Origin: an uncultured delta proteobacterium
GTDB taxonomy: Bacteria; Myxococcota; Myxococcia; Myxococcales; Myxococcaceae
Reading direction: 5' to 3'
Assembly: GCA_963776345.1 (NCBI GenBank)
Contig: CAVZMH010000015.1
Coordinates: 352,001 to 416,000 of the forward strand
Length of the DNA stretch: 64,000 nucleotides
A program made the translations under genes and the position numbers. Positions within the stretch are counted from its first letter, which is position 1; every line of letters begins with the position of its first letter. Shown piece by piece: positions 14,514-32,476 of the stretch. The notes beneath the pieces were generated by a model. It was not told the origin of the DNA, searched no databases, and saw only the letters and a program-made list of their open reading frames with translations.

Positions 14514-14547
14514 CTCAGCCCCCCGCGGGAGCGCCACCGGTCCATGC

Positions 14548-15291
14548 TCAGCTCCCCAGCTCGAGCCGCGCGCCCAGGTCTCCCGGGAGACCGGCCGCGC
14601 GGATCTTCCGCGCCGCGCGCTCGGCGTCGTAGGGGACGCGGTGGAACACCAGGACCTCGGAGGCGTCGTCGAACGTCGCGTAGCAGGCCGCCGGATTTCC
14701 GTCCCGGGGCTGCCCCACCGAGCCGGGGATGACCAGCCAGCGCCGCAGCGCGCTGAGCTTGATCGGCGTGCCGGGCACCGGCTGGAACGCGGCCACCGCG
14801 CCGTCGGCGGCCAGGTGGTAGAGCGCCGGGATGTGGGTGTGGCCGCAGAAGATCTGCCGCGCCTTCACCGCCCGGAGGCTCTGCCCGGCGTCGGCGGCCG
14901 ACAGCACGTAGGTCCACTGCGCCGGGTCGGCCGCGCTGGCATGCACCAGGAGGCGCTCGCCGCGCTCGATGGTCAGCGGGAGACCCTCGAGGAACGCCAG
15001 CTGCTCGGGGGTGAGGTGCTGGCGCGTCCAGGTCACCGCCCGCGCCGCCTCGTCCCGCATGGAAGGCTGCGGGCCACGGCTCGCCGCCTCGTCGTGGTTG
15101 CCCTTGAGCGCCAGCGCCCCCGCGGCCACCGCCGCCTGCACCCGGTCCACCACCGGTCCTGGGTCCGCGCCGTAGCCCACCAGGTCCCCGAGGAAGGCCA
15201 GCTGCTCGGCTCCCTGCCGTCGCGCGTGCTCGAGCACGGCCTCGACCGCCTCTAGGTTGCCGTGCAGGTCGGTGAGCAGGGCCAGCCGCAT
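14548..15291 (-). CDS. metallophosphoesterase (calcineurin-like)
   Basis: DLHGN, GDLVGYG, GNHD, CGHTH, PGSVGQPRDG. Confidence 0.92.
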   Translation of the reverse strand: MRLALLTDLHGNLEAVEAVLEHARRQGAEQLAFLGDLVGYGADPGPVVDRVQAAVAAGALALKGNHDEAASRGPQPSMRDEAARAVTWTRQHLTPEQLAFLEGLPLTIERGERLLVHASAADPAQWTYVLSAADAGQSLRAVKARQIFCGHTHIPALYHLAADGAVAAFQPVPGTPIKLSALRRWLVIPGSVGQPRDGNPAACYATFDDASEVLVFHRVPYDAERAARKIRAAGLPGDLGARLELGS

Positions 15292-15376
15292 CGGTCGCAT
15301 GTTCGTTGCATCGGCGCCCGGTGTCATCCGTCTCCTCTGCCGAATCCTTCCGGCAGCCGCCTGGCTCTGAGGTGAC

Positions 15377-15598
15377 ATGGACGACGCGCGGCGGAAAGAG
15401 GGCAACCAGCTCCTGGGCCTCGGCCTGGGCGTGGGCGCCTGGGGAGCGGCCAGCGGCGTGCTCCTCGGCGCGGTGTGCCCGGTCTGCGTCGTCGCGGCGC
15501 CCGCGCTGGTCGGGGTGGGCCTCTTGCGCCGGTGGCAGGCGGGCCGCTCCGGATGCCCGCCGGGCGAGGAACCGAGCAAGGAGAAACACGATGGCTGA
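15377..15598 (+). CDS. small membrane protein with CPVC motif
   Basis: SD GAGGTG before ATG; two hydrophobic segments; stop overlaps OsmC start. Confidence 0.6.
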   Translation: MDDARRKEGNQLLGLGLGVGAWGAASGVLLGAVCPVCVVAAPALVGVGLLRRWQAGRSGCPPGEEPSKEKHDG

Positions 15599-15995
15599 GA
15601 TCACCGTCACCTTCCCCGGAGGCAAACGGGTCGACGCACAGGTGGGAAATCACCACATCTCCACCGACCAGCCCCGCGCGGCGGGCGGCGACGACTCGGC
15701 GCCGGCTCCGTTCTCGCTGTTCCTGGCCTCCATCGGCACCTGCGCCGGCATCTACGTGCTCGGCTTCTGCCAGGCCCGCGGCATCGACCCGACCGGCATC
15801 ACCCTCACCCAGCGCTCGGCGACCGATCGTGAGACCGGCGTGCTGCGCTCGGTGGAGATCGACGTCCACGTCCCGGACGGCTTCCCGGCCCAGTACCGGG
15901 ACGCGGTGATCCGCGCCGCCTCGAACTGCGCGGTGAAGAAGGCCATCGCGGCCCAGCCGGAGTTCCGCATCGCGGTGACCAGCCCGCCGCCCTAG
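15591..15995 (+). CDS. OsmC family protein
   Basis: TDQP..GG.DSAPAPFSLFLASIGTCAG ... CAVKK; SD AAGGAG. Confidence 0.88.
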   Translation: MAEITVTFPGGKRVDAQVGNHHISTDQPRAAGGDDSAPAPFSLFLASIGTCAGIYVLGFCQARGIDPTGITLTQRSATDRETGVLRSVEIDVHVPDGFPAQYRDAVIRAASNCAVKKAIAAQPEFRIAVTSPPP

Positions 15996-17161
15996 GTGTG
16001 GTGGTGCAGCGACTCGACCAGATACGGGTCGTGCACGGGCTCGAGCGGCGCCGTCGCCAGCACCCGGAAGAACACCGCGGCGAACGCCGCCCCCACGCCC
16101 ACCAGCGCCCCGAGCTCGACCCAGGGCAGCGGCGGAACGCCGCGGAGCGTGGCCGGCGCGATCTGCAGCCACACGTCCAGGAAGCGGCCGAGGAGCACCA
16201 GCACCGCGACCGGGACCAGCCGCGCCGGGGTGCGCTTCGCCGCCCGGGGCAGGAGCAGCAGGAACGGCAGCACCCACCCGACCACCAGATTTCCCCAGAA
16301 GAGCGGACCCCAGCCGTTCCGCGTCCGGGCGAGGATGTACGCGGTCTCCTCGGGCAGGTTCGCGTACCAGATGAGGAGGTACTGGCTGAACCAGAGGTAC
16401 GCCCAGAAGGTCGAGAAGCCGAACAACAGCTTCCCCAGGTCGTGCAGGTGGCTCTCGTTGACCTCTGGCATGCGCCCCTCCCGGCGCAGCCAGAAGACCC
16501 CGAGGATCGCCACCGCCGTCCCGGTCAGGAGCGTGCTCCCGATGGTGTAGAAGCCGAAGATGGTGCTCGCCCAGTGCGGCTGGGCGCTCATCAGCCAGTC
16601 CACGGAGGCGAGGCTGAGGGTGTAGCCCCCCAGCAGCAGGAACACCGCCGCCAGGGCCACCGACCTCCGGGTGTGCTGCACGCGCCCGTCCGCATCCTGG
16701 GCCAGCGACTGCCGGCGCAGCATCAGGGCGAACGCGCCCCAGATGCCGAGGAAGAGCAGCATCCGGATGCCGAAGGCCGGGAGGTTGAGGTACGACGCCT
16801 TGGCCGCGATGAGCGGATCCGAGGTCGCCCCCGGACGCGCCCAGACGTAGATCCACCGCGCGCCGGGGAGCACGGCCAGGAGCGCCACCACTCCGACCGG
16901 GTTCAACGCCAGCGCCTCCAGCACCCGCTTGAAGGCGACGTGGAACCCGGCGTTGGAGACCAGGAACAGCGAGAGCAGGGCCAGCGCGCCCAGCGCTGCG
17001 GCCACGGCGAGGAACCCGGCGGCCAGCAGCGCCGACATGCCGCGGGCCGGGTCGAGGAAGAGCCCCAGCGCCAGCACCACCAGCCCGGCCACCGCGAGCG
17101 GGACCAGCAGCGCCGGCGGAGGCGGCGCGGTGGCGAGCCGGGTCTCGGTCGCTGGGCTCAT
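15992..17161 (-). CDS. actF: alternative complex III subunit F
   Basis: Multi-TM; DWLMS..PHWASTIFG, HLHDLGKLLFGFSTFWAYLWFSQYLLIWYANLPEE. Confidence 0.88.
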   Translation of the reverse strand: MSPATETRLATAPPPPALLVPLAVAGLVVLALGLFLDPARGMSALLAAGFLAVAAALGALALLSLFLVSNAGFHVAFKRVLEALALNPVGVVALLAVLPGARWIYVWARPGATSDPLIAAKASYLNLPAFGIRMLLFLGIWGAFALMLRRQSLAQDADGRVQHTRRSVALAAVFLLLGGYTLSLASVDWLMSAQPHWASTIFGFYTIGSTLLTGTAVAILGVFWLRREGRMPEVNESHLHDLGKLLFGFSTFWAYLWFSQYLLIWYANLPEETAYILARTRNGWGPLFWGNLVVGWVLPFLLLLPRAAKRTPARLVPVAVLVLLGRFLDVWLQIAPATLRGVPPLPWVELGALVGVGAAFAAVFFRVLATAPLEPVHDPYLVESLHHHT

Positions 17162-17718
17162 GGCTTCCCCCCGCCCTGCAGCTGCCGGATGTAGAGCGCC
17201 ACCTTCCACCGATCCTCCGGGCGGACCTGTGCGGCATGCGACGGCATCAGCCCCTGGCCACGGGTGATGATGTGAAAGATCTGCCCGTCGGGGAGGCTCC
17301 TGGCGTGCGACGCGGTCAGCGACGGCGGCGCGGGAAAGCGCGGCACCACCGGGCCATCGCTCTCCCCCGCCGGGCCATGGCAGGTGAAGCAGATGGTGTG
17401 GAACACCTTGTCGCCGCGGGCCAGGATCTCCGGCGTGGCGGCGAGCGGGTTCCTCAGCTCGCGGCCGGCGCGTACCGCCTCCTCTGGCCCGGCACCGTAG
17501 TGGAAGGGCTGGACCCCGCGGGCCACGCTCCCCGGCGCGGGCGACTGGAGCGTCATCCCCAGCGCAAGCACCGGGTTGGGCGAGAAGCTCTCGTAGGGCA
17601 CCGCGTCGATCATGTCCTTCACGTACTCGCGCCCCGGCTCGAGCGGATCGCTCGTCCCGCAGCCCCCGCAGCCCGAGAGACCGGTCAGGACCGACAGGAG
17701 GAGCAGGCGGACTCTCAC
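17158..17718 (-). CDS. actE: alternative complex III subunit E (monoheme cytochrome c lipoprotein)
   Basis: Lipobox LSGC; P.PGSVARG; CFTCH; DGQIFHIITRGQGLMPS; DRW. Confidence 0.88.
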   Translation of the reverse strand: MRVRLLLLSVLTGLSGCGGCGTSDPLEPGREYVKDMIDAVPYESFSPNPVLALGMTLQSPAPGSVARGVQPFHYGAGPEEAVRAGRELRNPLAATPEILARGDKVFHTICFTCHGPAGESDGPVVPRFPAPPSLTASHARSLPDGQIFHIITRGQGLMPSHAAQVRPEDRWKVALYIRQLQGGGKP

Positions 17719-18268
17719 CCCTTGACCCCCGGGAGCGCGGACAGCCGGCGGGCCGGCGCCTGCGGCTCGAGCCAGCCGGTCTCCACCGCGCCATGCTCGA
17801 GGCAGAGCGCCCGGGCCCGGCTGTCGTCCGCCACCTCCTCCAGCACCAGGGCGAAGCGGTCGTCGGTCACCCCGGGCAGGGTGTCGGCGGCACGGCCCGG
17901 CCAGAGCCTGGCGACCGCGAACAGCGCCGAGACGGTGATCAGGGACGCGCACAGCACCGTGAACTCGAAGGTGACGGGGATGTACGCCGGGATGGAGGCG
18001 AAGGGCTTTCCGCCGACGTTCAAGGGCCAGGACACGGCCGAGGTCCACCAGGCGAAGAGGAGCATGGTGGTGAGGCCGGTGAGCCCGGCGAAGAAGCACA
18101 CCTGGCTGAGCCGGGAGCGGCGCAGCCCCATCGCCGTGTCCAGGCCGTGGACCGCGTAGGGCGTGTAGACGTCGCGGATGCCGAGCCCCGCCTTGCGCAC
18201 CGCCCCGGTGGCGGCGAGGACGTCCTGCTCTCGGGTGAAGTAGGCGACGAACGGTCGGGTGGTCGGGC

Positions 18269-18272
<4 letters not shown>
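17715..18272 (-). CDS. actD: alternative complex III subunit D (DUF3341)
   Basis: [32 protein letters not shown]. Confidence 0.9.
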
Positions 18273-19662
<1,390 letters not shown>

Positions 19663-19666
<4 letters not shown>

Positions 19667-22600
19667 CTGGTCTCTCCCGGATTCCTGATGCGGGTGAGGT
19701 AGCTGACGTTGGGCTGCACGTTCAGCTCGGCCAGCAGGTGGTAGCTGCGCGCATCACGGGCCAGCGCGGCGACCTCGCTCTTCGGGTCGTTCAGATCGCC
19801 GAAGACCAGCGCCCGGGTCGGACAGCTCTGCTGGCAGGCGGTGGCCACCTCGCCGTCGGCCAGCGTCCGCCCCTGGCGCTTCGCCTGCGCCCTCCCCTCC
19901 TGGATGCGGTGGACGCAGAGCGAGCACTTCTCCATCACCCCGCGGCTCCGGACGACCACGTCCGGGTTGAGCACCAGCCGCTCCACCGGGTCGTCGTGCC
20001 GGTAGTCGAACCAGTTGAAGCGCCTTACTTTTGGTGGACAGTTGTTGGCGCAGTACCGGGTTCCCACGCAGCGGTTGTAGACCTGCTGGTTCAGGCCCTC
20101 GGCCGAGTGCACCGTCGCCAGCACCGGGCACACCGTCTCGCAGGGGGCGTTGGCGCAGTGCTGGCACATCACCGGCTGGTGGAGCACCTCCGGGCTCTCC
20201 GGGTCGCCCGCGTAGTAGCGGTCGATGCGCATCCAGCTCATCTCGCGGTTCCGGAGGACCTCGGTTCGGCCCACCACCGGGATGTTGTTCTCGGCCTGGC
20301 AGGCGACGATGCACGCGCCGCAGCCGGTGCAGGCGCTGAGATCCACCGCCAGGCCCCACTTCGGGCCGGGCACCGGGTGCGCGCCCCACGCGGAGTCAAG
20401 CGGCTCCTCGGGCGGGTTGCCCGCGGCCGGGTCGGCGAGGAATGCGGCGAGCGTGGCCTCGCGGATGTGCGGGCGCCCCTCGAGCGAGGCGTGCACCTGG
20501 GAGCGCGCGAGATCGCGCCGGCCCTCGGCGCTGCGGACCCGGGCCCGGCGGCTGAAGCGCACCCGGCCGCCGCGCATCTCGGCCAGGGGGAAGGCATCCG
20601 CCCCGATGCCGTTGCCCACCGCGCCGGCGCCGGTCCGGCCGTACCCCAGCGCGAGCGCCAGGACGTTCCGATGCGTGCCGGGCTGGACCACCACCGGCAC
20701 GGTGACCGTCCATCCTCCGGCGCTGACCTGGACCAGCTGTCCGTCGGTCCACCCGAGCTGCCGTGCCCGCGCGGGCGAGACGCAGGCCACGTTGTCCCAG
20801 GTCACCTTGGTGATCGGATCCGGCAGCTCCTGGAGCCAGCCGTTGTTGGCGCCTCGCCCGTCGTGCAGGGTGAGCGAGGGGTGGAGCCAGAGCTCCAGCT
20901 CGTCCGGAGCGCTGGAGCTCGCGCCCATCACCGACTCGCCCGGAGCGGCGCTCGCCGCGAGCAGCGGCCCGAGCGCTCCCGGGCGGAGCGCCGGCGCCGC
21001 GGCCCCGGCCTTCACCTCGACGAAGCCCGCCTGCAGCGTCCGCTCCCAGAACGCCTCGAAGCCCTCGCCCGCGGCCGCGGCCCCGCGGAAGACCTCGGCC
21101 CGGAGCCGCTCGCGCACCGCCTCGTGCGCCGAGACGCGGCCCGCCGGGACGCCGGACCAGGTCTGCAACGACTCGAGGGCCGAGCGGGTCTGGAACAGCG
21201 GCCGGAGCGCCGGCTGGCGGACGGTGAGGAGGCCGAGGCCGGGCGAGGCGTCGCCCCACGACTCGGCCGGGGCGTGGTCCGGGGCGAGGTACCCCACCCG
21301 CGCCCCGGTCTCGTCGGCCCGATCGTTGGTGGCGAGGACCAGCGGCGTCTCCCGCAGCGCCGCGCCCAGCCGCGCGCCCTCGGGGTGTGCCTGCACCGGA
21401 TTGTTGCCGAGGAAGAGGACGGCCCCGGCGCGGCGGGCCTCGAGGTCCGCGAGCAGCGTCTCGAACGACGCGGTGCCGGCGGGGACGGCGGCGCCGGCGC
21501 CTGGCTCGAACGTGGTGCCCTCGGCGCCGAGCAGGAGGTTGGCGGCGAGCGCCAGCGCCTGCGCGCCGGGGTCCGCGACACCGGTGATGACCAGAGCCCG
21601 TGGCGCCGAGGCGCGCAGCTCCGCGGCGAGCCGGTCGAGCACGCCGGCGGAGAGCGACGGCTCCGGCATCTCCGCGCCCCTGGCGAGCGCGGCCCGCTGG
21701 GGGTGCACGCTGGACCGGGCCAGACGGCGAACGAGCGCGGCGAGCGCCGGGACGAGCTCGCTCGGCGCCACCTGCTCGCGGCGGTCCGCGTTGGAGCCGG
21801 TGAGGGTCATCGCCGGCTCCAGCTGCCAGTGCCGGGCGAAACCCGCGGGGTGTCCGGTCCTCGCGTGCTCCTCGCCCTTGCCCTCGCGCCGCTCGGAGAG
21901 CGGGAGCCGGCGGCCATCGGCGTACTGCCGGGCGAAGGCGACCGGGTCGAGCCAGGTGCCGAGGAAGTCGGCGGCGAACGCGGCGATGGTACGGGCCCGG
22001 TCGAGGTGAAACCGGGGCAGCGCGCGGACGCCGAGCAGCGCCTCGGACGCCTCGGCCAGCGAGGAGACCTCGCCGGTGGAGTCGAAGCGGACCACCCGCG
22101 CCGAGGGCCAGGCGGCGAGGAACCGCGCCAGCACCGACTCGAACGTCGGCCCGGTGACGGCCGGGGCGACCAGGTAGATCGCTCTGCCCGACACGGCCGC
22201 GGACTGGAGCCCCTGGAGCACGCCCCTGTCGAGCGCGGCCCAGGGCACGGACTTTCCGGCGAGCGTCGGGGTGCGCGCCCGGCTCGAGTCGTACAGCGAG
22301 AGGACCGAGGCCTGCCCCGCGGCGCAGAGGCCGCCCCGGCTCCAGGGGTGCTCGGGGTTACCCTCGACCTTGATCGGCCGGCCGTCGCGCGTCTTGAGCA
22401 GCACGCCGCACTGGGCGGGGCAGCCGGCGCACGCCGAGGCGTAGAAGACGGAGTTGCCCGGGACGAGCTCCTCGGGCTTGGCCAGGTAGGGGATGACCTT
22501 CGCGACCGGGGCGCGCTGGCAGCCGGCCAGGGTCACCGCGGCGGCGGACAGCCCCATCATTCCGAAGAAGCCGCGGCGCGAGACCTCGGCCGGAGCCGGC

Positions 22601-22698
22601 CCGGGCCCGGGCCGCTCCGGCTGCGGCACGCGCTGCCAGCCGCCGGCGTCGGCGCCTTCGACCGTCTCCAGTGTCTGCCAGTGGCGTCGCTCGGACAT
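19663..22698 (-). CDS. actB: alternative complex III subunit B (molybdopterin-oxidoreductase fold + Fe-S)
   Basis: Tat motif SRRGFF + lipobox [36 protein letters not shown]; four Cys clusters ([40 protein letters not shown]). Confidence 0.95.
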
Positions 22699-22704
22699 GG
22701 CTCT

Positions 22705-23223
22705 CTAGTGGTGGCAGGCCGCGCAGTCGGTGGGCGGCTGCAGGCGCTTGGCCTGTTCGGGGTCGGCGAGGGTGTTGCGGTGACACTCGAGACACCAGCC
22801 CATGGTCATGGTCGCGACCTGCTGGATGCGGACCATGGTCTCCACCGGGCCATGACAGGTCTGGCACACCAGCCCCGCGGAGACGTGGTTCTGGTGGCTG
22901 AACCAGGCGAAGTCGGGGAGCCGGTGCACCCGCACCCACTCGATGGGCCGGTTCTCCGCCACCGCCTTGGTGAGCGCCACGATGTCCGGCGCGTCCTTCT
23001 TCACCTGGCTGTGGCATCCGAGGCAGAGCTGCGCCGACGGGACGCCCGAGTGGCGGCTCTGCGCCGCGCCGAAGTGGCAGTACTCGCAGTTGATCTGGAA
23101 CTGCCCGGAATGGAGCGCGTGCGAGAAGGCGATGGGCTGCGCCGGCTCGTAGCCCTGCTGGGTGAGAAAGCCGTTGTCACAGCCCGCGCCCAGGGCGAGC
23201 GCCGCCAGGACGAGCCGCCTCAT
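22705..23223 (-). CDS. actA: alternative complex III subunit A (pentaheme cytochrome c)
   Basis: QPIAFSHALH; five CXXCH (CEYCH, CLGCH, CQTCH, CLECH, CAACH); WVRVHRLPDF; MGWC. Confidence 0.93.
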   Translation of the reverse strand: MRRLVLAALALGAGCDNGFLTQQGYEPAQPIAFSHALHSGQFQINCEYCHFGAAQSRHSGVPSAQLCLGCHSQVKKDAPDIVALTKAVAENRPIEWVRVHRLPDFAWFSHQNHVSAGLVCQTCHGPVETMVRIQQVATMTMGWCLECHRNTLADPEQAKRLQPPTDCAACHH

Positions 23224-23888
23224 GGCGCGCTCCGGGGCCGCTCGGCGCCGGCCCAGAACTCGAACCAGGAGCGGATCCACTGCGGCGGGTAGCTGCTGAA
23301 GGGCAGCAGCGCCAGCGCCAGGAAGGAGCTGGCCACGTGGGCCTGCGGCCAGAAGCCCATGCCGGAGAGCCCGCTCACCTCCGGCCGGAGGGTGAGCAGC
23401 GAGCGCAGGTACGGGACGAGCACCGTGGTGTACCAGGCCGCGCCCCAGCGGTCGGTCACCGCCACCACCACGCCGGTGAGGGTCGCCGCCAGCACCGCCC
23501 CGAGCGAGGCGAGCTCGAGCCCGGTCCGCAGCCGGCCGAACCGCGGGTCGCGGATCCGTCGCCATCCGGCCAGGCCGACCCCGACCAGGAACAGCGCGCC
23601 GCCCATCCACCCCACCAGCTCCACCGCGACCAGCAGCGGCCGCCAGGAGAGCACCGTCAGCGAGGTCGAGGGGAAGAGGAGCGGGACCAGGTGCAGCGGG
23701 ATGAGCACCAGGCAGCCGAACCAGGTGAGCCAGGCGGCGAAGTTCGACCGCTCCGTCACCAGTGCGGGCTGGAGCTCGGGAGCGCGGACCGCCGCGATGA
23801 CCGCCTTGCGGAAGAGGATGGCCGGGACGAGCTGCCCCAGCGCCACGTAGGGCAGTACCACGAAGAGGAGCACGGCCTGGAGGCTCAT
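23220..23888 (-). CDS. NarI-like (nitrate reductase gamma family) membrane cytochrome b, only two His
   Basis: LFVVLPYVAL N-terminus, WRR, PYLRSLLTLRP, H-x11-PFS; five TM; stop overlaps actA start. Confidence 0.8.
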   Translation of the reverse strand: MSLQAVLLFVVLPYVALGQLVPAILFRKAVIAAVRAPELQPALVTERSNFAAWLTWFGCLVLIPLHLVPLLFPSTSLTVLSWRPLLVAVELVGWMGGALFLVGVGLAGWRRIRDPRFGRLRTGLELASLGAVLAATLTGVVVAVTDRWGAAWYTTVLVPYLRSLLTLRPEVSGLSGMGFWPQAHVASSFLALALLPFSSYPPQWIRSWFEFWAGAERPRSAP

Positions 23889-24700
23889 CTCTGCCCTCCC
23901 CCGCCGCCCCGAGCTTTCCACCCGATGGCCAGCGCGCCGATAATCGCGCAGGCGCCGAGCACTCCGAGCTCGAGGAGGTCGCGGCTCTTCCTGGGCCGTG
24001 TGCCGTCGCGCGAGAGCGAGGCCAGGTAGGCGCGGACCGCGTACGACTCCTCCTCGGTGGGAGCCCGGCCGGCGTAGGCCTGCTTCTCCACCGGCGAGGC
24101 CAGCAGCGCGTCCGAGAGCCCCTTCTCGTGGCGGCGCGCCCAGACGAACGTCAGGTCACCCCCGAGCGAGCCGCCGCCGAGCAGCTGCTCGCCCCGGACG
24201 TCGTGGCACCCTGCGCAGGGCGGGCCCCCGGCCGAGAAGCGCCGCGTCCCGAGGAAGTACTCCCGCCCCGCCGCGATCTCCTCGGGCGTGGCGTCGATGG
24301 ACAGCTTGGGGCCGCCGACCGGGGTGCAGCCGTCCTTCTCGGTGCAGGCGGCGAAGAAGACCAGCAGCTCGTCGATCTGCGCCGGCGTTAGAGCCTGCTC
24401 CGGCATGCGGACGCCGTTGAACATCTGGAGCAGCTCGAGCGCGGTGGGGTCCTTGCCGTCGAGCATCGCCGTGGGGCTGGTGAGCCACTTCTTGATCCAC
24501 GCGGGCTCGCGGCGCTGGTCCACCCCGAGGAGATCCGGACCGATCTTGTTGCCTTCCCCGAGGGTGTGACAGCTCAGGCACTTCTGCCCGAAGAGCAGGC
24601 CGGCCGGCGACGCCTCGGGCGAGACGCCCGCATCCGGTCCGGGGGCAGCGAGGACGGTCGGGGCGCAGGCCAGGACGACGGCCAGCGCCGCGCTCTTCAT
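23885..24700 (-). CDS. membrane-anchored diheme cytochrome c (NarC-like)
   Basis: Signal peptide; CLSCH..GPDL..MP; F.G.RRF..GGPPCAGCH..GGGSLGGDLT; C-terminal TM. Confidence 0.8.
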   Translation of the reverse strand: MKSAALAVVLACAPTVLAAPGPDAGVSPEASPAGLLFGQKCLSCHTLGEGNKIGPDLLGVDQRREPAWIKKWLTSPTAMLDGKDPTALELLQMFNGVRMPEQALTPAQIDELLVFFAACTEKDGCTPVGGPKLSIDATPEEIAAGREYFLGTRRFSAGGPPCAGCHDVRGEQLLGGGSLGGDLTFVWARRHEKGLSDALLASPVEKQAYAGRAPTEEESYAVRAYLASLSRDGTRPRKSRDLLELGVLGACAIIGALAIGWKARGGGGGQR

Positions 24701-24761
24701 TCCGCGGAACGGGGTCACGTGCGGCCGGCCTCGAAGCAAGCGACGGGCCATCCGTCGCGCC

Positions 24762-25427
24762 TCAGTGGCACACCCGTCCAGCCTCCGAAAGAAGCGCGCG
24801 GCTTGCGATCACCACCGCCGCGAGCGCAGGAATCGCCCTCCTGGCCCATCGGGCTCCCCGGCCCTGGCCGCGGAGGAACGCGCCGGTGGGCAGCTGCGAC
24901 AGCGCCAGGGCCGGCACCGCGCCGGCGCCGAAGGCGGAGAGCGCAAACGCTCCGCCGAAGAATGACCCGGCGGCGAGGCTCGCGGTGAAGGCGCCGTACA
25001 GAAGTCCGCATGGAAGCAGGGGAGTCAGTCCGCCGAGCGCAATGGCGCGAGCGGTCCGGGGCAGCTTTTGCGTGCACCCCGCGGCGCGACGCATCATTTG
25101 CGCGAGCCCCGGAACGGCTGGCAACCGGTTGCCGAGATCGAGCGCCGCGACGAGCAGCGTGGCCACCAGGATCCAGGGCGCCACGGGCAGGAGCGAGACC
25201 TCCAGGATCCGCGTGGCGCCCCCGCCCAGCGTGCCCAGGAGCCCTCCCACGACGCCGTAGGCGGCGAGTCGTCCGAGCTGGTACCCGAGCACCGGCCCGA
25301 GCCGGTCCGGTCCGCTCGACGAGGCGGCGCACGCCAGCGGGCCGCACATGAGGAAGCAGTGCAGGCTGGAGGAGAAGCCCACCACCGCGGCGGCGACGGC
25401 GGTCGAGAGAAGGAGCGGATCGACCAT
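24762..25427 (-). CDS. DsbD_2 / TauE-SafE family protein (cbb3 assembly-associated)
   Basis: SLHCFLMCGP, YQLGRLAAY, LLPCGLLY. Confidence 0.88.
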   Translation of the reverse strand: MVDPLLLSTAVAAAVVGFSSSLHCFLMCGPLACAASSSGPDRLGPVLGYQLGRLAAYGVVGGLLGTLGGGATRILEVSLLPVAPWILVATLLVAALDLGNRLPAVPGLAQMMRRAAGCTQKLPRTARAIALGGLTPLLPCGLLYGAFTASLAAGSFFGGAFALSAFGAGAVPALALSQLPTGAFLRGQGRGARWARRAIPALAAVVIASRALLSEAGRVCH

Positions 25428-25440
25428 CGCCGGCCCGTGG

Positions 25441-25462
25441 AGCAATTGGCATACCGTTCGCA
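25441..25462. promoter_or_regulatory. two overlapping divergent sigma54-type (-24/-12) promoters
   Basis: Plus strand TGGCATACCGTTCGCA (25447-25462); minus strand CGGTATGCCAATTGCT (25456-25441); both GG-N10-GC. Confidence 0.6.
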
Positions 25463-25478
25463 GCCAGGCGCGGGCCGG

Positions 25479-27869
25479 GTGTCCGCCTCCGCCTCCTCCA
25501 CGCACTGCCTGCACTGCGGAAGCCCCGTCGCCGATCCGGGCCGGGGCGCCTTCTGCTGCGCCGGATGCGAGGCGGTGCACGGGCTGCTCGTCGACCAGGG
25601 CCTGACCCGCTACTACGCGCTGGCCCGTGGGGCGGTGCTCCCCGCCTCCTCGGCCGAGCGGGCGCGAAGCCACGCCTGGCTCGATCCGCTCCGGACCGCG
25701 GCCGAGGCCACCGTGTCACCGCTCTGCGCGCTCGAGCTGGACGTGCAGGGCATCCACTGCGCGGCATGCGTGTGGCTGATGAACGAGCTGTTCCGCCGCA
25801 CGCCGGGCGGCGCCGGCTTCACGGTGAACCCCGCGCTGGGGAAGGTGCGGATGCAATGGAGGCGCGGCGGCTTCGACGTCGAGCGCTTCGTCTCCGAGGT
25901 CGAGCGGTTCGGGTACGCGTTCGGCCCGAGCCGCAAGACGACCCCCAGGCCCTCCCGAGATCTCGTGGTGCGCCTCGGCGTCTGCGCGGCGGCGACGATG
26001 AACGTGATGCTCTTCTCGTTCTCGTTCTACTTCGGGCTCTCGCCCGGGGACGGGTCCACCTTCTCGCTCTTCACCTGGGGAAGCCTCCTCCTCGCCACGG
26101 TGGTGGTGCTGGTGGGCGGCTGGCCCTTCTTCCGGGCCGCGGCGCGCGGGCTCTCCCGGGGGCTGCTCCACCTCGACGTCCCCATCGCGCTGGGCATCAC
26201 CCTGGTCTACGCGCTCTCGGTGGTGCAGACCTTCCAGAACCGCGGCGACCACGCCTACCTGGACACGCTCTGCACCTTCATCACCCTGATGGTGCTCGGC
26301 CGGTGGCTGCAGCAGCGGGTGCTGGACCGGAACCGCCGCTTCCTGCTCGAGGACGACGGCTCCGACGCGCTGGCGGTCCGCCGCCGCGAGGGCGGGACGG
26401 TGGCGGTGGTGCCCGCGCCGCGCGTCGCCTCGGGGGACTCCCTGGTCGTCGCCCCCGGGGACCTCCTGGTCGTCGACGCGACGCTCACCCAGCCGGGCCG
26501 GTTCTCGCTCGACTGGATCACCGGCGAGCCCGAGCCGCGGGGGTTCGCCGCCGGAGAGACCGTCCCGGCCGGGGCCTTCAACGCCGGGCGCAGCGCCGTC
26601 GAGGCGCGGGCGACGCAGTCGTTCCAGCAGTCGGTCCTTCCGGCGTTGCTCGCGGCGCGCCCCGACGGTGAGACGCGGGACGCCAGCGCGCGGTTCTTCG
26701 ATCTCCTCGCCCGGTACTACGTGCTCACGGTGCTGGCGCTGGCGGCCGTGGGCACCTTGCTCTGGGCTCACGCCGGGGCGCAACGGGCGGTGGACGTCGC
26801 GGTGGCGCTCCTGGTGGTCACCTGCCCGTGCGCGCTGGGGATCGCGATTCCCCTCGCCCACGAGCTGGTGCACGCCGGCCTGCGCCGGCGTGGAGTGCTG
26901 GTGCGCGCGCCCGATCTGCTGGATCGGCTGACGCGCCTCCGCACCGTCCTCTTCGACAAGACCGGCACCCTCACCCTCGGCCGGCTCGACCTGGTGGAGC
27001 CGCACAACCCGGGACAGCTCGCGCCGGAGGTGCGCGACGTCGCGTACCGGATGACCACCGGCAGCAACCACCCGGTGTCGCGCTGCCTCGCCCGTGCGCT
27101 CGCTGGCGCTGGCGCGCGGGTCGACGAGCCGCTGCAGTCGGAGGAGATCCCCGGCCGTGGACTCGAGCTGGTGCGTGACGGCCGCCGCTACCGCCTCGGG
27201 GCTCCGGGCTGGGCCGTCCCCGGCGCGAGCGCCGCGCCCGGGGTCACGCTCCTCTCGATGGACGGCGCGCCGCTGGCCCGCTTCGTCACCCGCGAGGCGG
27301 TGCGTCCGGGCGCGCAGCGCCAGCTGGCCCGGCTCCGTGCCGCGGGCCTCGAGGTGTGGCTTCTCTCCGGAGACGCACGCGGACGGGTCGAGGAGTTCGG
27401 CCGCGCGCTCGGGCTTCCGAACAACCGGGTGCTCGGCGAGCTCTCCCCCACCGGCAAGGCCGAGGTCGTCACCCGGGTGGACCGGCGCGACACGCTGTTC
27501 ATCGGCGACGGGGTGAACGACAGCCTGGCCTTCGCCGCCGCGTTCGCCGCGGGTACCCCGGCGGTGGACCGCCCGGTGATGCCCGGAAAGTCGGACGTCT
27601 TCTTCCTCGGCGAGAGCCTGGAGGGTCTCGGCGAGCTCCTGGCCGCAGCGCAGTCCTTGCGCACCGTGGTGCGCCGCATCCTGGCCATGGCGCTCGCCTA
27701 CAACGCGCTGGCGGTGACCGTGGCGATGCTCGGACTGGCCACCCCGCTGGGGGCGGCGGTGGCCATGCCCGCGAGCTCGCTGGCGATCCTCCTGGCCACC
27801 ACCGGCTGGCTGGCCGGGAATCGCCGCGCTCCGGCGGCGGCACCGAAGCTGCACGAGGCGCCCGCGTGA
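25479..27869 (+). CDS. ccoI: heavy-metal (Cu) P1B-type ATPase CcoI/FixI
   Basis: CLHCG..FCCAGC N-terminal domain, IHCAAC, TGE, CPCALG, DKTGTLT, GDGVND. Confidence 0.93.
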   Translation: MSASASSTHCLHCGSPVADPGRGAFCCAGCEAVHGLLVDQGLTRYYALARGAVLPASSAERARSHAWLDPLRTAAEATVSPLCALELDVQGIHCAACVWLMNELFRRTPGGAGFTVNPALGKVRMQWRRGGFDVERFVSEVERFGYAFGPSRKTTPRPSRDLVVRLGVCAAATMNVMLFSFSFYFGLSPGDGSTFSLFTWGSLLLATVVVLVGGWPFFRAAARGLSRGLLHLDVPIALGITLVYALSVVQTFQNRGDHAYLDTLCTFITLMVLGRWLQQRVLDRNRRFLLEDDGSDALAVRRREGGTVAVVPAPRVASGDSLVVAPGDLLVVDATLTQPGRFSLDWITGEPEPRGFAAGETVPAGAFNAGRSAVEARATQSFQQSVLPALLAARPDGETRDASARFFDLLARYYVLTVLALAAVGTLLWAHAGAQRAVDVAVALLVVTCPCALGIAIPLAHELVHAGLRRRGVLVRAPDLLDRLTRLRTVLFDKTGTLTLGRLDLVEPHNPGQLAPEVRDVAYRMTTGSNHPVSRCLARALAGAGARVDEPLQSEEIPGRGLELVRDGRRYRLGAPGWAVPGASAAPGVTLLSMDGAPLARFVTREAVRPGAQRQLARLRAAGLEVWLLSGDARGRVEEFGRALGLPNNRVLGELSPTGKAEVVTRVDRRDTLFIGDGVNDSLAFAAAFAAGTPAVDRPVMPGKSDVFFLGESLEGLGELLAAAQSLRTVVRRILAMALAYNALAVTVAMLGLATPLGAAVAMPASSLAILLATTGWLAGNRRAPAAAPKLHEAPA

Positions 27870-28013: not shown

Positions 28014-30347
28014 GTGGAACAAAGGGTCATCACCTACGACGACACGACCGTTCGCCGCTTCATCGCCGCGGGCGTGATCTTCGGCGCGGTCGCGATGCTG
28101 GTGGGCGCGATCATCGCCACCCAGATGATCTGGTGGCAGGCCAACCTCGGGGTGCCCTACCTGGTCTTCTCCCGGCTGCGCCCGCTGCACACCAACGCGG
28201 CGATCTTCGCCTTCGTCGGCAACTCGATGTTCGCCGGCATCTATTACTCGACCCAGCGGCTGTGCAAGGCGCGGATGGCCTCGGATCTGCTCTCCAAGAT
28301 CCACTTCTGGGGCTGGCAGCTGATCATCGTCGCCGCGGCGATCACCCTCCCGCTGGGGATCACCACCTCCAAGGAGTACGCCGAGCTGGAGTGGCCGATC
28401 GACGTGGCGATCACCGTGATCTGGGTGGTCTTCGCGATCAACTTCTTCTGGACCCTGGCCAGGCGCCACGAGAAGAACCTCTACGTCGCGCTGTGGTTCT
28501 ACATCGCGACCATCGTCACCATCGCCGTCCTGCACATCGTCAACAGCCTGGAGATCCCGGTCACCCTGACCAAGAGCTACTCCATCTTCCCCGGGGTCCA
28601 GGACGCGCTGGTGCAGTGGTGGTACGGGCACAACGCGGTCGCCTTCTTCCTCACCACGCCGATCCTCGGGATCATGTACTACTTCATGCCCAAGGCGGCG
28701 GAGCGGCCGGTCTACAGCTACCGGCTCTCCATCGTGCACTTCTGGTCCCTGGTGTTCATGTACATCTGGGCCGGGCCGCACCACCTGCTCCACACCGCGT
28801 TGCCGGACTGGGCGCAGTCGCTGGGCATGGTGTTCAGCGTGGCGCTCTGGGCGCCGAGCTGGGGCGGGCTGATCAACGGCATGCTCACCCTGCGCGGAGC
28901 CTGGGACAAGCTCCGCACCGATCCGGTCATCAAGTTCCTGGTGGCGGCGCTGACCTTCTACGGCATGTCCACCTTCGAGGGCCCGCTGCTCTCGATCAAG
29001 AGCGTCAACGCCCTGGCCCACTACACCGACTGGATCATCGGCCACGTCCACAGCGGGGCGCTGGGCTGGAACGGGTTCATGGCCGCGGGCACCTTCTACT
29101 GGATGGTGCCGCGCCTGTTCGGGACCAAGCTCTACTCGAAGAAGGCGGCCGAGGTGCACTTCTGGATGGCCACCGCGGGGATCATCCTCTACGTGGTCGC
29201 GCTCTGGGTCGCGGGCATCAGCCAGGGCCTGATGTGGAAGGCCCAGACCCCGGACGGCGCGCTGGCCTACCCCTCGTTCGTGGAGACCATCCTCGCCATC
29301 CGGCCGCTGTGGATGGTGCGCCTCACCGGCGGCCTGCTCTACCTCGGCGGCTTCCTCCTGATGGCCTGGAACCTGACCCGGACCGCGCTGGCCGGCAAGG
29401 CGGTGGACGGACAGGTGACGGTGACCGTCGAGGAGCCGCACGCCGTGCCCGAGCCGAGCGCCGGCTGGCTGGTCACCCGGCCCGGGTTCCTCTTCGTCCT
29501 CGGGGCGGTGGTGCTGTCCTTCTTCCTCGGCGGCGCCTCGATGATGACCGGGGTGAAGGTGCTGGTGGTGCTGATCATCCTCGCCGAGGTGGCCTGGCTG
29601 TGGTTCAAGGCCCGGCCGCGCGACACCACCGCGCCCGGCTGGCACCAGCTGGTGGAGGGCAAGCCGCTGTTCTTCACCGTGCTCCTGCTCTTCGCGGTGC
29701 TCGCCGGAGGGATCGCCCAGCTCATCCCCACCATCTTCGCGCCCTCGGCCGTGCCCTGGACCGGTGAGAAGCAGCAGCCGTACTCGCCGCTCGAGCTCGC
29801 CGGCCGCGACATCTACACCCGCGAGGGCTGCTACGTGTGCCACTCGCAGATGATCCGCACCCTGCAGGAAGACACGCAGCGGTACGGCGCCTACTCCCGG
29901 CCGGAGGAGTTCATCTACGACCACCCCTTCCAGTGGGGGAGCAAGCGCACCGGGCCGGATCTCCACCGGGAGGGCGGGAAGTACCCGAACCTCTGGCACT
30001 ACTCGCATCTCATGGACCCGCGCTCCACCAGCCCGGGCAGCAACATGCCCAGCTTCGCCTGGACCGCGGACTACACCGTGGACCAGTCGCTCCTGGGGCG
30101 GAAGATGATCGCCCTCCAGAAGGTGGGCGTGCCCTATTCCAACCTCGCGGTGGACGGGGCGCGCGACGCCTACCGCAAGCAGGCCGACACCATCGTCGCC
30201 GACCTGGCCAAGGAGGGGGTGGCCGTGCCCTGGGACCGGGAGATCGTCGCGCTGATCGGCTATCTGCAACGGCTCGGACGGGGGCCCCAGATGCCCGCGC
30301 CGCTGCCCACCGCGGCAGCGCCCGCGCCGGCCCGGGGAGGCCAGTGA
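28014..30347 (+). CDS. ccoNO: cbb3-type cytochrome c oxidase fused subunits I/II (CcoN-CcoO)
   Basis: RLRPLHTNAAIFAF, WWYGHNAV, WAGPHHL, GHVHSGALGW; CcoO part GRDIYTREGCYVCHSQMIR, WGSKRTGPDL. Confidence 0.97.
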   Translation: MEQRVITYDDTTVRRFIAAGVIFGAVAMLVGAIIATQMIWWQANLGVPYLVFSRLRPLHTNAAIFAFVGNSMFAGIYYSTQRLCKARMASDLLSKIHFWGWQLIIVAAAITLPLGITTSKEYAELEWPIDVAITVIWVVFAINFFWTLARRHEKNLYVALWFYIATIVTIAVLHIVNSLEIPVTLTKSYSIFPGVQDALVQWWYGHNAVAFFLTTPILGIMYYFMPKAAERPVYSYRLSIVHFWSLVFMYIWAGPHHLLHTALPDWAQSLGMVFSVALWAPSWGGLINGMLTLRGAWDKLRTDPVIKFLVAALTFYGMSTFEGPLLSIKSVNALAHYTDWIIGHVHSGALGWNGFMAAGTFYWMVPRLFGTKLYSKKAAEVHFWMATAGIILYVVALWVAGISQGLMWKAQTPDGALAYPSFVETILAIRPLWMVRLTGGLLYLGGFLLMAWNLTRTALAGKAVDGQVTVTVEEPHAVPEPSAGWLVTRPGFLFVLGAVVLSFFLGGASMMTGVKVLVVLIILAEVAWLWFKARPRDTTAPGWHQLVEGKPLFFTVLLLFAVLAGGIAQLIPTIFAPSAVPWTGEKQQPYSPLELAGRDIYTREGCYVCHSQMIRTLQEDTQRYGAYSRPEEFIYDHPFQWGSKRTGPDLHREGGKYPNLWHYSHLMDPRSTSPGSNMPSFAWTADYTVDQSLLGRKMIALQKVGVPYSNLAVDGARDAYRKQADTIVADLAKEGVAVPWDREIVALIGYLQRLGRGPQMPAPLPTAAAPAPARGGQ

Positions 30348-30523
30348 TGTACTCGGAATTCTTCCGCGCCCATCACCTGATCGATCTTCCGCTGGCCGGC
30401 TCGGTGCTCTTCGCCGCGCTGTTCCTCGGCATCGTGGCCTGGCTCTTCCTGGAGCGGACGCAGCGGTTCGAGCAGGCGGCACGCCAGCCGCTCGACGACG
30501 ACGAGAGGAGTGTGCGGTCGTGA
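30347..30523 (+). CDS. ccoQ: cbb3 oxidase subunit CcoQ-like
   Basis: 58 aa; LF..LFLGIVAW..F..AARQPLDDD; TGATG coupling to ccoNO. Confidence 0.75.
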   Translation: MYSEFFRAHHLIDLPLAGSVLFAALFLGIVAWLFLERTQRFEQAARQPLDDDERSVRS

Positions 30524-31080
30524 GCGAGAAGCAGATGGACGTCGAGCGCGGCCACACCTTCGACGGGATCCAGGAGTACGACAACCCGCTGCCCCGCTGG
30601 TGGCTCTTCATCTTCTACACCACGGTGCTCTTCGGGTACGGCTACTGGATGCACTACCACGTGGCGCGCACCGGGGTCGGCGGGGCCGCGGCCTACGAGG
30701 CGGAGAAGGCGGAGGCGATGCGGCACGCGGCGGCGACCAAGCCCATCACCGACGACCTGCTGATCGGGCTGTCCAAGGACCCGCAGACCACCGCGACCGG
30801 CCAGAGGCTCTTCGTGCAGCAGTGCGCCGCCTGCCACCTGGAGAACGGCTCGGGGAAGATCGGGCCCAATCTCACCGACGAGTTCTGGCTGCACGGCAAC
30901 AAGCCCACCGACATCCTGAAGACCATCTCCAAGGGAGTGGTGGAGAAGGGGATGCCGGCCTGGGAGCCGACGCTCGGCGCCGAGCGGGTGCGTTCGCTCG
31001 CCGCCTTCGTCATCAGCCACGAGGGACTGAATCTCCCGGGGAAGGAGCCCCAGGGTGAGCGCCTCGGAATCGTCAAGTAG
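30520..31080 (+). CDS. ccoP: cbb3 oxidase subunit III (short, monoheme CcoP)
   Basis: HTFDGIQEYDNPLPRWW; single CAACH; GPNLTD; GMPAW. Confidence 0.92.
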   Translation: MSEKQMDVERGHTFDGIQEYDNPLPRWWLFIFYTTVLFGYGYWMHYHVARTGVGGAAAYEAEKAEAMRHAAATKPITDDLLIGLSKDPQTTATGQRLFVQQCAACHLENGSGKIGPNLTDEFWLHGNKPTDILKTISKGVVEKGMPAWEPTLGAERVRSLAAFVISHEGLNLPGKEPQGERLGIVK

Positions 31081-32476
31081 CGTCGAGGGCACAGGGCGCC
31101 CGCGCTTCCTGGACGCGAGGGGCGGGCGGATCAAGATCCACCCCGAGGACGTGCGCGGCCGCTTCGTCCGCTGGCGACGCATCGTCTACGCGGTGCTGAT
31201 CCTCCACCTGCTCGCCCTGCCCTTCATCAAGAACGGCAAGCATCCGGCGATCCACCTGGACATCCCCAGCCGTCAGTTCTTCCTCGCCGGGCACGCCTTC
31301 AACGCGCAGGACGTCTGGCTGATGGTGTTCCTGCTCGCGGCGTTCGCCTTCGGGCTGGTGTTCGTCACCGCGCTGGCGGGCCGGGTGTGGTGCGGGTGGG
31401 CCTGTCCGCAGACGGTGTTCCTGGAGGGCCTCTACCGCCCCATCGAGCGGTGGCTCGAGGGACCGGCGTACCAACGGCGGCGGGCGGCCGAGGGCGGCTG
31501 GACCGGGCGGCGCATCGGGCTGCTCCTCATCAAGCAGTCGCTGTACGTGCTGGTGTCGCTGATCCTCGCCCACTGGTTCCTGGCGTTCTTCGTGCCGGCG
31601 CCCACGCTGGTGGAGCTGGTACTCCACGGGCCCGCCGGGCACGAGACCCTGTTCGGGATCGCGATGCTCGTCACCCTGCTGTTCCTGGGAAACTTCGCCT
31701 GGTTCCGCGAGCAGTTCTGCGTGATCCTCTGCCCGTACGGCCGTCTCCAGTCGGTGCTCACCGACCGGAAGAGCCTCCTCATCGGCTACGACGCAGGTCG
31801 GGGAGAGCCACGGGGCAAGGTGACCAAGGGCGCCGAGGCCCCCGCGCGCGGCGACTGCATCGACTGCGGCCGCTGCGTCCGGGTCTGCCCCACGGGGATC
31901 GACATCCGCAACGGCCAGCAGATGGAGTGCATCGGCTGCGCGCAGTGCATCGACGCCTGCGACGAGATGATGATCAAGGTGGGCCGGCCGGTGGGGCTGG
32001 TGCGCTACGACTCGCTCGAGGGCTTCGAGGGGGAGAAGAAGGGAGGCCTTCTCCGGCCACGGGTCCTGGCGTACGGCGCGGTGACCGCCGCGGCGCTGCT
32101 CACGGTCGGGCTCAACGTCTTCGCGCTGCGCACGCCCTTCGAGGCGAACCTGCTCCGCTCGGCGGGGATCCCCTACGTGCTCGAGACCGCCACCATCCGG
32201 AACCAGTTCGAGCTGCACCTGATCAACAAGCACGTGGACCCGGCGGAGTTCGAGGTGGCGGTGAGCGGCCCGGAGGGCACGACGGTCATCGTGCCGCAGC
32301 CGCGGATCCAGCTCGGGCCGCTGGAAGGCATCCGCACGCCGGTGATGGTCACCATCGATCGCGCCAGGTACCGCGGGCCGTTCGAGCTGAAGGCGACGGT
32401 GAAGGACCTGGCGACCGGCGAGGTGCGCGAGCTGTCGGGGAGGTTCCTGGGGCCGCCGGTGGGGCCGAAGAGCTGA
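31055..32476 (+). CDS. ccoG: cbb3 accessory polyferredoxin CcoG/FixG
   Basis: GRVWCGWACPQTVF, REQFC..CPYGR, CIDCGRCVRVCPTGIDIR, CIGCAQCIDAC. Confidence 0.95.
   Translation: MSASESSSSVEGTGRPRFLDARGGRIKIHPEDVRGRFVRWRRIVYAVLILHLLALPFIKNGKHPAIHLDIPSRQFFLAGHAFNAQDVWLMVFLLAAFAFGLVFVTALAGRVWCGWACPQTVFLEGLYRPIERWLEGPAYQRRRAAEGGWTGRRIGLLLIKQSLYVLVSLILAHWFLAFFVPAPTLVELVLHGPAGHETLFGIAMLVTLLFLGNFAWFREQFCVILCPYGRLQSVLTDRKSLLIGYDAGRGEPRGKVTKGAEAPARGDCIDCGRCVRVCPTGIDIRNGQQMECIGCAQCIDACDEMMIKVGRPVGLVRYDSLEGFEGEKKGGLLRPRVLAYGAVTAAALLTVGLNVFALRTPFEANLLRSAGIPYVLETATIRNQFELHLINKHVDPAEFEVAVSGPEGTTVIVPQPRIQLGPLEGIRTPVMVTIDRARYRGPFELKATVKDLATGEVRELSGRFLGPPVGPKS

Follow-up and report, generated by a model that had tools for sequence, protein, structure and literature searches.

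Respiratory nitrate reductases contain the closest described relatives of the gene pair reported here. In Thermus thermophilus, NarC, a membrane-anchored periplasmic diheme cytochrome c, is paired with NarI in the NarCGHI enzyme (operon narCGHJIKT), and was proposed (PMC7694296) to take the place of complex III by branching electrons to periplasmic acceptors. A similar pair was found on a stretch of 64,000 nucleotides, hereafter the window, from an uncultured delta proteobacterium of the family Myxococcaceae (assembly GCA_963776345.1, contig CAVZMH010000015.1, positions 352,001 to 416,000). Its genes, written narC* and narI* to set them apart from those of nitrate reductase, differ from the Thermus pair in that narGHJ and narK are absent, NarI* has neither the ligands of heme bP nor the residues that face NarH, and the pair stands at the head of an operon for alternative complex III (ACIII).

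Escherichia coli NarI, the gamma subunit of NarGHI (1Q16), shares with NarI* the fold and the ligand pair of heme bD, whereas NarI* lacks H56/H205 and S39/S40/R202, has G65/G69/K86 replaced and is encoded in a genome without NarGH. In the ACIII of Flavobacterium johnsoniae (6BTM) the mobile heme domain at the N-terminus of ActA is homologous to domain 1 of NarC*; in the window, by contrast, a diheme protein distinct from ActA carries this domain and is paired with a b-type cytochrome. DsrMKJOP combines the NarI-family protein DsrM, whose quinol site is described as blocked, with a periplasmic cytochrome c and a NrfD-type quinol-oxidising subunit (bioRxiv 10.64898/2026.08.25.746951); DsrM, however, carries two hemes and wires to cytoplasmic DsrK, whereas NarI* has a single ligand pair and is without a partner in the cytoplasm. 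If anything, NarI* would work like the periplasmic half of Thermus NarCI, or like DsrM minus its cytoplasmic arm.

Also among the closest systems are intact narCGHJI-(narK)-actA-F operons (L019, L105, L109, L110, L118, L138 and L145), which share with the window the same ACIII paralogue (ActC 73-77% identical where covered), the NarC clade and the gene order at both ends, but keep narGHJ and have all four heme-ligating His in 7/7. No paper on intact narCGHJI-narK-act operons was found in the literature searched. A search for descriptions of a NarI-like gene in act operons, in which subscription surveys of ACIII gene clusters were not covered, also found none, and the accessible parts of PMC2129111, PMC11841059 and bioRxiv 2024.01.15.574570 do not mention such a gene. 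The comparison set out below indicates that narC*-narI* is likely the retained, periplasm-facing half of a NarC-type nitrate reductase.

NarI* and its diheme partner NarC*

The pair and the codons discussed are located in the window as follows:
23885..24700, minus strand: narC*, NarC-type diheme cytochrome c, 271 amino acids, two CxxCH motifs
23220..23888, minus strand: narI*, NarI-fold membrane protein, 222 amino acids, bD ligand pair only
23691..23693, minus strand: codon of His66, a retained ligand of heme bD (H66 in E. coli)
23337..23339, minus strand: codon of His184, a retained ligand of heme bD (H187 in E. coli)
23721..23723, minus strand: codon of Trp56, which stands in place of the lost heme bP ligand (H56 in E. 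coli)
23283..23285, minus strand: codon of Pro202, which stands in place of the lost heme bP ligand (H205 in E. coli)
23619..23696, minus strand: quinol-site region of NarI* by alignment (Leu65, Pro69, Leu85, Glu90)

NarI* has exactly two His, H66 and H184, as an earlier note on this DNA had counted. The register that the note had drawn by eye was reproduced both by phmmer against E. coli NarI (1y5i_C, E 0.13) and by a multiple alignment with E. coli K-12 NarI: W56 falls on H56, H66 on H66, H184 on H187 and P202 on H205. A table in PMC5338063 gives H66/H187 as the ligands of heme bD and H56/H205 as those of heme bP, in agreement with the distal and proximal roles that the note had assigned to the two pairs. 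NarI* is predicted to bind one heme b. Both junctions, narC*/narI* and narI*/actA, are stop/start overlaps, as the note had claimed and at the coordinates it gave; the overlap is ATGA in each.

Regarding family membership, NarI* matches PF02665 (E 2e-18, 67 bits against a cut-off of 22.9) and stays below the NarI equivalog TIGR00351 (29.1 bits, cut-off 105.55; 133.7 bits for the intact relative L019). An AlphaFold2 model (predicted local distance difference test score, pLDDT, 87) has E. coli NarI as its best structural match, with a Foldseek template modelling (TM) score of 0.70-0.75 and a VIA Z of 16.5, the second-best match reaching a Z of 7.1. NarI* departs from NarI in the four-His ligand set and in the absence of narG, narH and narJ from operon and genome. 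Nor is it of the DsrM/HmcE/TmcC type, having two His, a nar-derived periplasmic motif and an act context; the DsrM-like control L041 has four His and Arg65. Databases label NarI* 'nitrate reductase subunit gamma', and a close homologue is labelled Myxococcaceae.

NarC* has a signal peptide and a C-terminal transmembrane helix (241-265). Heme 1 is bound by C41-C44-H45 with M99 as the Met ligand; at heme 2 (C162-C165-H166) the usual distal Met is replaced by E205, and a new H191 is present, which was weighed as a substitute axial ligand but by eye lies at the start of a helix and not at the heme-2 Met position. The two class I CxxCH domains, the C-terminal membrane anchor and the clustering with NarC of nar operons (44% identity to that of the intact operon L019) are those of NarC, whereas His/Met ligation of both hemes is not found, the heme-2 Met having become Glu205. 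This Met is present in 33/33 nar, 5/5 nar+act and 44/44 Myxococcus/Archangium/Hyalangium-type sequences and in 0/8 of the window's clade, which has Glu or Cys in all eight; it is lacking in 58/67 NarC* of the Acidobacteriota type described below. Wherever the NarC* of a reduced locus extends over heme 1, the His/Met ligation of this heme is retained. Domain 1 is similar to the N-terminal part of ActA from F. johnsoniae (6btm_A, E 9.4e-10), and a fold search with NarC* gave single-domain cytochrome c matches only, no solved NarC being among them.

In the Acidobacteriota type (L026, L158-L162 and others) an unpaired Pro-Cys follows heme 2 in 61/67 NarC, a candidate for a His/Cys-ligated, low-potential heme 2, and no C-terminal membrane anchor was present in the sequences inspected; the NarI* of this type end in a conserved Trp/Pro/acidic tail.

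The absence of narGH from the window, as given in the earlier note, extends to the whole genome (98.4% complete), in which no narG or narH scored above cut-off, and tblastn gave no match to narJ or narK. PF02665 matches only one gene of this genome. Besides the window's ACIII operon there are two more, both without narC/narI, and one of these adjoins an aa3-type oxidase. In the third ACIII operon (G000:C20, L023 8800-16400) ActC is 44% identical and the operon is preceded by a cupredoxin/carboxypeptidase-regulatory-like gene; no oxidase match was found among the neighbours checked.

Distribution and probable derivation from nar operons

PF02665 was searched in 368 genomes of the class Myxococcia, 117 of which matched, including a large group of weak, C-terminally short matches. 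Loci were retrieved for 50 weak and 20 strong matches, together with others from further searches; about 30 weak matches, which cover profile positions ~38-200 or are fragments, were left out and are probably DsrM/HmcE-like (one similar match that was retrieved, L041, is DsrM-like). The final tally counts one locus per place. Regarding the 57 reduced Myxococcia loci, narC lies directly upstream in 57/57 and actA directly downstream in 56/57 (one contig ends), H56 and H205 are both lost in 57/57, and H66 and H187 are both kept in 52/57; the exceptions are a frameshifted assembly (G004), Leu for H66 (L155) and replacement of H187 (G331-333). NarI of nar operons has all four His in 58/59, the remaining one being cut by a contig end. 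The paired loss of H56 and H205 is not chance, because it recurs at each of the reduced loci that were examined; since the genomes are kin, the Myxococcia counts are to be read as consistency and not as independent trials. The earlier note had proposed to check whether loss of H56/H205 with retention of H66/H187 goes with act adjacency and absence of narGH, or whether homologues in act operons keep four His or lose them at random: an association with act adjacency and with absence of neighbouring narGH was found, and at the reduced loci the same pair is lost throughout.

Named carriers include Myxococcus xanthus, M. vastator, Pyxidicoccus, Archangium, Vitiosangium and Hyalangium, and the module occurs in 31/32 genomes of the Myxococcus group. 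The window's ACIII paralogue (ActC >=72% identical) was found in 56 of the Myxococcia genomes searched, all of which have a NarI-family gene (53 by PF02665, three by hand between narC and actA). A genus-specific pattern, which the first searches had suggested, was rejected by the wider search. The three genes found by hand belong to small-genome (2.1-2.7 Mb) Myxococcaceae (G331-G333; L256-L258, e.g. L257:12794-13489), which PF02665 missed and which retain narC, the NarI-like gene and actA-F, adjoining cbb3 in G332. These NarI-like proteins are full-length, with His66 present, Cys/Ala near His187 and several extra membrane Cys. At L155 (G320), of the Myxococcus group, His66 is Leu while two near-identical relatives keep the His; this would be a sequencing error or a recent loss.

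A profile search of 1.84 billion representatives, with a query that favours two-His proteins, gave 690 matches; among the best 150 of these, 65 had the two-His pattern, 43 four His and 42 partial patterns or single losses, and none had the reverse pattern (bP kept, bD lost). A deeper two-His branch comprises 534 clusters at E<=1e-20, for which some sources name Ca. Angelobacter, Bryobacteraceae or Acidobacteriia. This Acidobacteriota-type branch was traced in metagenomes with a search pattern that held the H187 motif and left H56, H205 and gene context free; the best 80 of 123 relatives were kept, some being re-assemblies of one organism. Among these 80 loci, 76 are two-His (76/76 full-length) and four truncated; narC lies upstream in 70 and actA downstream in 66, the other 14 ending within 320 bases, and apart from narC no nar genes were found beside NarI*.

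Other fusions of NarI were met in these searches. P0152 (712 amino acids, five CxxCH) joins a two-His NarI* to a multiheme cytochrome c of another kind, not ActA-like, which suggests that a one-heme NarI can anchor other periplasmic cytochromes. Seven NarI-Rieske [2Fe-2S] fusions (P0045, P0046, P0063, P0064, P0108, P0102 and P0115; 404-441 amino acids) have a Rieske domain of the bc-complex type, five with all four His and two with losses. L074, L076, L081 and P0041 are four-His NarI fused to a NarK/MFS transporter (644-699 amino acids).

Regarding the origin of the pair, a genome of the window's family (G032) carries narC-narG-narH-narJ-narI-narK-narK-actA-F, with ActC 77% and NarC 44% identical to those of the window, and six further loci join a four-His narI to act genes. 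L032 (G355:C66, 6372-11485) has narC, degenerate but largely open-frame homologues of narG (1009 amino acids) and narH at 35-39% identity, no narJ match, and then a two-His narI, an inserted CBS-domain-like gene and actA-C; it is possibly a half-way state or a catalytically dead NarGH scaffold. Because relatives have the intact narCGHJI-narK-actA-F arrangement and one has a decayed narGH, the likely origin is loss of the cytoplasmic arm, and we infer that the window locus derives from a narCGHJI-narK-narK-actA-F ancestor by loss of narGHJ and narK around narI, an origin that the earlier note did not name. In the NarC tree, the window's clade groups with that of Myxococcus/Archangium/Hyalangium (99/94), and the two share a branch with NarC of the intact nar+act operons (93/98, not starred). 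Sequences of the Acidobacteriota type form a group of their own (100/100), and a single origin for all is not rejected (approximately unbiased test, p-AU 0.187). Most of the ActC tree lacks resolution (one-clade test, p-AU 0.206). For the NarI tree, which is dominated by long branches, five truncated or unrelated rows were dropped first, and thinning at 80% identity then kept 62 of the 119 distinct rows.

Proposed role beside alternative complex III

We give about an even chance to the reading that narC*-narI* is an accessory module of ACIII, in which NarI* holds NarC* and the outer heme of NarC* carries electrons to the cbb3 oxidase. ActC would oxidise quinol, and electrons would pass through ActB, ActA/ActE and heme 1 of NarC* to cbb3. 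NarI*, folded round one heme b, would hold NarC* on ACIII at the membrane, and the outer His/Met heme 1 would hand electrons from ACIII to the neighbouring oxidase. How the module binds, which hemes it carries and which way electrons run are our inferences. The genes on which this reading draws are:
22705..23223, minus strand: actA, pentaheme cytochrome c, 172 amino acids, five CxxCH, lipoprotein-type N-terminus, without monoheme domain
19663..22698, minus strand: actB
18269..19666, minus strand: actC (NrfD family; canonical ACIII quinol-site subunit)
17715..18272, minus strand: actD (PF11821, E 2e-48; start inferred inside the longer open reading frame 17715-18515)
17158..17718, minus strand: actE, monoheme lipoprotein (start inferred inside open reading frame 17158-18099)
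15992..17161, minus strand: actF, weak ActC similarity and conserved position (start inferred inside open reading frame 15992-17794)
24762..25427, minus strand: membrane protein of the DsbD_2 family (PF13386; start inferred), part of the cbb3 cluster and next to narC* on its upstream side
25068..27869, plus strand: ccoI, copper P-type ATPase (open reading frame limits; true start near 25490)
28014..32476, plus strand: cbb3 oxidase genes (ccoNO fusion 28014-30347, ccoP 30520-31080, ccoG 31055-32476)

The ACIII set actA-F thus stands in one run behind narI*, actF being assigned by position and weak ActC similarity only, and the cbb3 cluster (25.5-32.5 kb) lies on the other side of narC*-narI*. 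A scan of 22600-25800 for promoters and terminators gave one weak promoter-like match on the plus strand and one weak terminator-like match. Behind actF follow a Ser/Thr kinase-Usp fusion and a metallophosphoesterase (window 13086-15579), a position that is conserved in the genus.

Coupling to ACIII, which the earlier note had proposed, is supported by the act adjacency and by fusions, each a single record: NarC-NarI* (L028, P0175), NarI*-extra transmembrane helix-ActA (P0174) and four-His NarI-ActA (P0070); these arrangements would fit the proposed topology. For F. johnsoniae, PMC8552683 proposes that a mobile sixth heme, carried by the N-terminal part of ActA, acts as the electron shuttle towards the oxidase; the ActA of the window is without a domain matching that part. 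In Thermus, NarC and NarI interact in a two-hybrid assay and the distal NarC heme matters more (PMC7694296). The diheme protein, NarI*, the window's ActC paralogue and ccoN co-occur in the same 6/13 genomes of the window's genus; cbb3 and the module occur together in the same 2/11 genomes of the Hyalangium group, and each of the 31 genomes of the Myxococcus group that carry NarI* has cbb3. Nearly all Myxococcaceae with the module have this oxidase, and the intact-nar relatives G032 and G030 have no ccoN match. In M. xanthus DK1622 the pair is MXAN_5560/MXAN_5559, ahead of MXAN_5558-5553; Table S1B of PMC9548883 shows that it is transcribed and that MXAN_5560 and MXAN_5559 co-vary with actA MXAN_5558 (log r 0.97 and 0.89, 10 samples), MXAN_5559 correlating with actC and ccoN in six pure-culture samples (r 0.83 and 0.90).

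Several observations weigh against an accessory module of this kind. Over all 10 samples of that table, r between MXAN_5559 and actC or ccoN is 0.20 or 0.29. cbb3 without the module is common among relatives (20/23 genomes of group g6), no act gene lies within ~15-19 kb at 10/10 module-free cbb3 loci, and the module-bearing G192, G078 and G355 have no ccoN match. Myxococcales NarC* does not strictly need an anchor, because it has its own transmembrane helix. P0070 carries an internal lipoprotein-like signal, and some of the fusions may be frameshift artefacts. H66/H187 are kept in 52/57 genome loci and 76/76 full-length metagenome loci, Glu91 (E. coli M91; Glu90 in the window) is found in 57/57 reduced genome loci, and Arg86 is found in 47/57 reduced Myxococcia loci, though not in the window's genus; this conservation seems to exceed the needs of a plain anchor. 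In the Acidobacteriota type, position 65 is Gly/Ala in 51/77 and Arg86 is present in 64/79. The DsrM preprint mentions the glycines only and not roles of G65 and K86. A general requirement of cbb3 for NarC*I* was rejected, since many relatives have cbb3 without the module; the DsbD_2-family gene is present in 10/10 cbb3 clusters lacking act genes.

That narI persists merely as a slowly decaying relic, wedged between two needed genes with overlapping starts and stops, appears unlikely. The long branches on the NarI tree, the series from four to two to one His (G331-333, L155) with the decayed narGH of L032, and a ratio of nonsynonymous to synonymous substitution (dN/dS) that is the highest of the five genes compared are what it would explain. 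This dN/dS is nevertheless 0.24-0.33 in four pairs of the window's genus, where it is above actA-C and close to narC* (0.20-0.32), and 0.27-0.56 in six Myxococcus/Archangium pairs. The frame is full-length in 56/57 genomes, the exception being G004, an assembly in which most of the genes around are frameshifted as well. Across 26 NarI* with 24-84% identity, sixteen columns do not vary, even where identity is low (24-45%), and most of them lie on the periplasmic side; they include a helix 4-5 loop motif shared with NarC-type NarI and not found in E. coli NarI, which may be read as a NarC docking face. Residue loss is one-sided, the reverse pattern being absent from the 150 representatives: at positions >=80% conserved in 33 four-His NarC-type NarI, with sides assigned by the E. 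coli topology, retention across 27 NarI* is 0.89 on the periplasmic side (23 positions) and 0.33 on the cytoplasmic side (33 positions). S39 and S40, which a listing in PMC5338063 places in the bP-to-NarH network, are lost in 57/57 reduced loci, and the C-terminal tail motif is gone too. Moreover, narK and narGHJ are cleanly deleted on either side of narI. Remodelling rather than decay, as the earlier note had put it, is thus supported by purifying selection and by a His pattern that tracks act adjacency and absence of neighbouring narGH.

G65, G69 and K86 are presumably quinol-site residues of E. coli NarI, and we take G65 and K86 to gate the site. The window's NarI* has Leu, Pro and Leu there (L65, P69 and L85); position 86 is Arg in most NarC-type NarI, and position 65 is Gly/Ala in 57/59 NarI of nar operons and in 2/57 reduced Myxococcia loci. 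The heme bD quinol site is therefore likely closed in the window's genus, and NarI* would mainly be a heme-stabilised pedestal and not a second quinol oxidase. With three full-length genes without His187 in G331-333 and L155 without His66, the protein outlasts its heme ligands. In DsrM (bioRxiv 10.64898/2026.08.25.746951), bulky residues block the quinol site where NarI has glycines, and the NrfD-type DsrP oxidises quinol.

The earlier note had favoured a quinol-binding module giving an extra quinol entry. In this form, NarI* would oxidise menaquinol at bD and pass electrons through both NarC* hemes to ActA or directly to cbb3, a minimal complex III that bypasses ActC, like the sideline proposed for NarC-NarI of Thermus; it is tentative overall, clearly short of an even chance, and doubtful for the window protein, which has lost G65, G69 and the K86/R base as well as the heme-2 Met of NarC. 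Position 65 is bulky in 55/57 reduced Myxococcia loci, three genomes retain the full-length gene without His187, and no examined two-His NarI* locus stands apart from ACIII, which has its own quinol site (56/57 genome loci and 66/80 metagenome loci adjoin actA, the others being cut short by contig ends). The conservation of the bD ligands, Glu91 and mostly Arg86 speaks for it, as do the 65 two-His cluster representatives, with Gly/Ala at position 65 in 45 and Arg86 in 59. Thermus NarC is described as a complex III surrogate in PMC7694296, and in the M. xanthus data of PMC9548883 counts for the first three genes exceed those for actB-F, from which these genes are partly decoupled. The case is stronger for the Acidobacteriota type: its quinol site may be open, because position 65 is Gly/Ala in the majority given above, and quinol oxidation by its NarI* is possible, since the residues at 65, 69 and 86 are mostly kept there.

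Flow in the opposite direction is very improbable. NarC* would then take electrons from a low-potential periplasmic donor, bD would reduce menaquinone and ACIII would re-oxidise it. The loss of the heme-2 Met in two branches and an Acidobacteriota-type Pro-Cys suited to a low-potential His/Cys heme would agree with this, but no donor enzyme is conserved beside the locus, the Myxococcus types retain the heme-2 Met throughout (44/44), the window's quinone site looks closed and heme 1 stays His/Met.

Significance

The comparative signal is clean and spans two phyla. The graded series from an intact Nar-ACIII operon through decayed narGH and two-His NarI* to a one-His NarI would depict a respiratory enzyme that was cut down and re-used. 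A broader proposal, which we regard as speculative, is that these loci represent a widespread class of ACIII with a one-heme b-type cytochrome and a retuned diheme cytochrome c, both captured from nitrate reductase and serving as a second, periplasm-side quinol site or heme-b buffer, that may have arisen at least twice (in Myxococcales and Acidobacteriota) from nitrate-respiring Nar-ACIII supercomplex operons at a low-oxygen switch and is transcribed in M. xanthus.

If the accessory module is real, ACIII would gain two extra subunits, one of them a b-type cytochrome, in a complex for which mechanism and path to the oxidase remain under debate; to our knowledge, the known ACIII structures contain no heme-b subunit. 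The module genes are present in the genetically tractable M. xanthus (MXAN_5560/5559). Hundreds of NarI* (the 534 clusters) match PF02665, and those with named sources are labelled gamma subunit although no narGH adjoins them, so that calls of nitrate respiration based on narI can be wrong in myxobacteria and soil Acidobacteriota. The His pattern together with actA adjacency separates NarI* from the NarI of true nitrate reductases.

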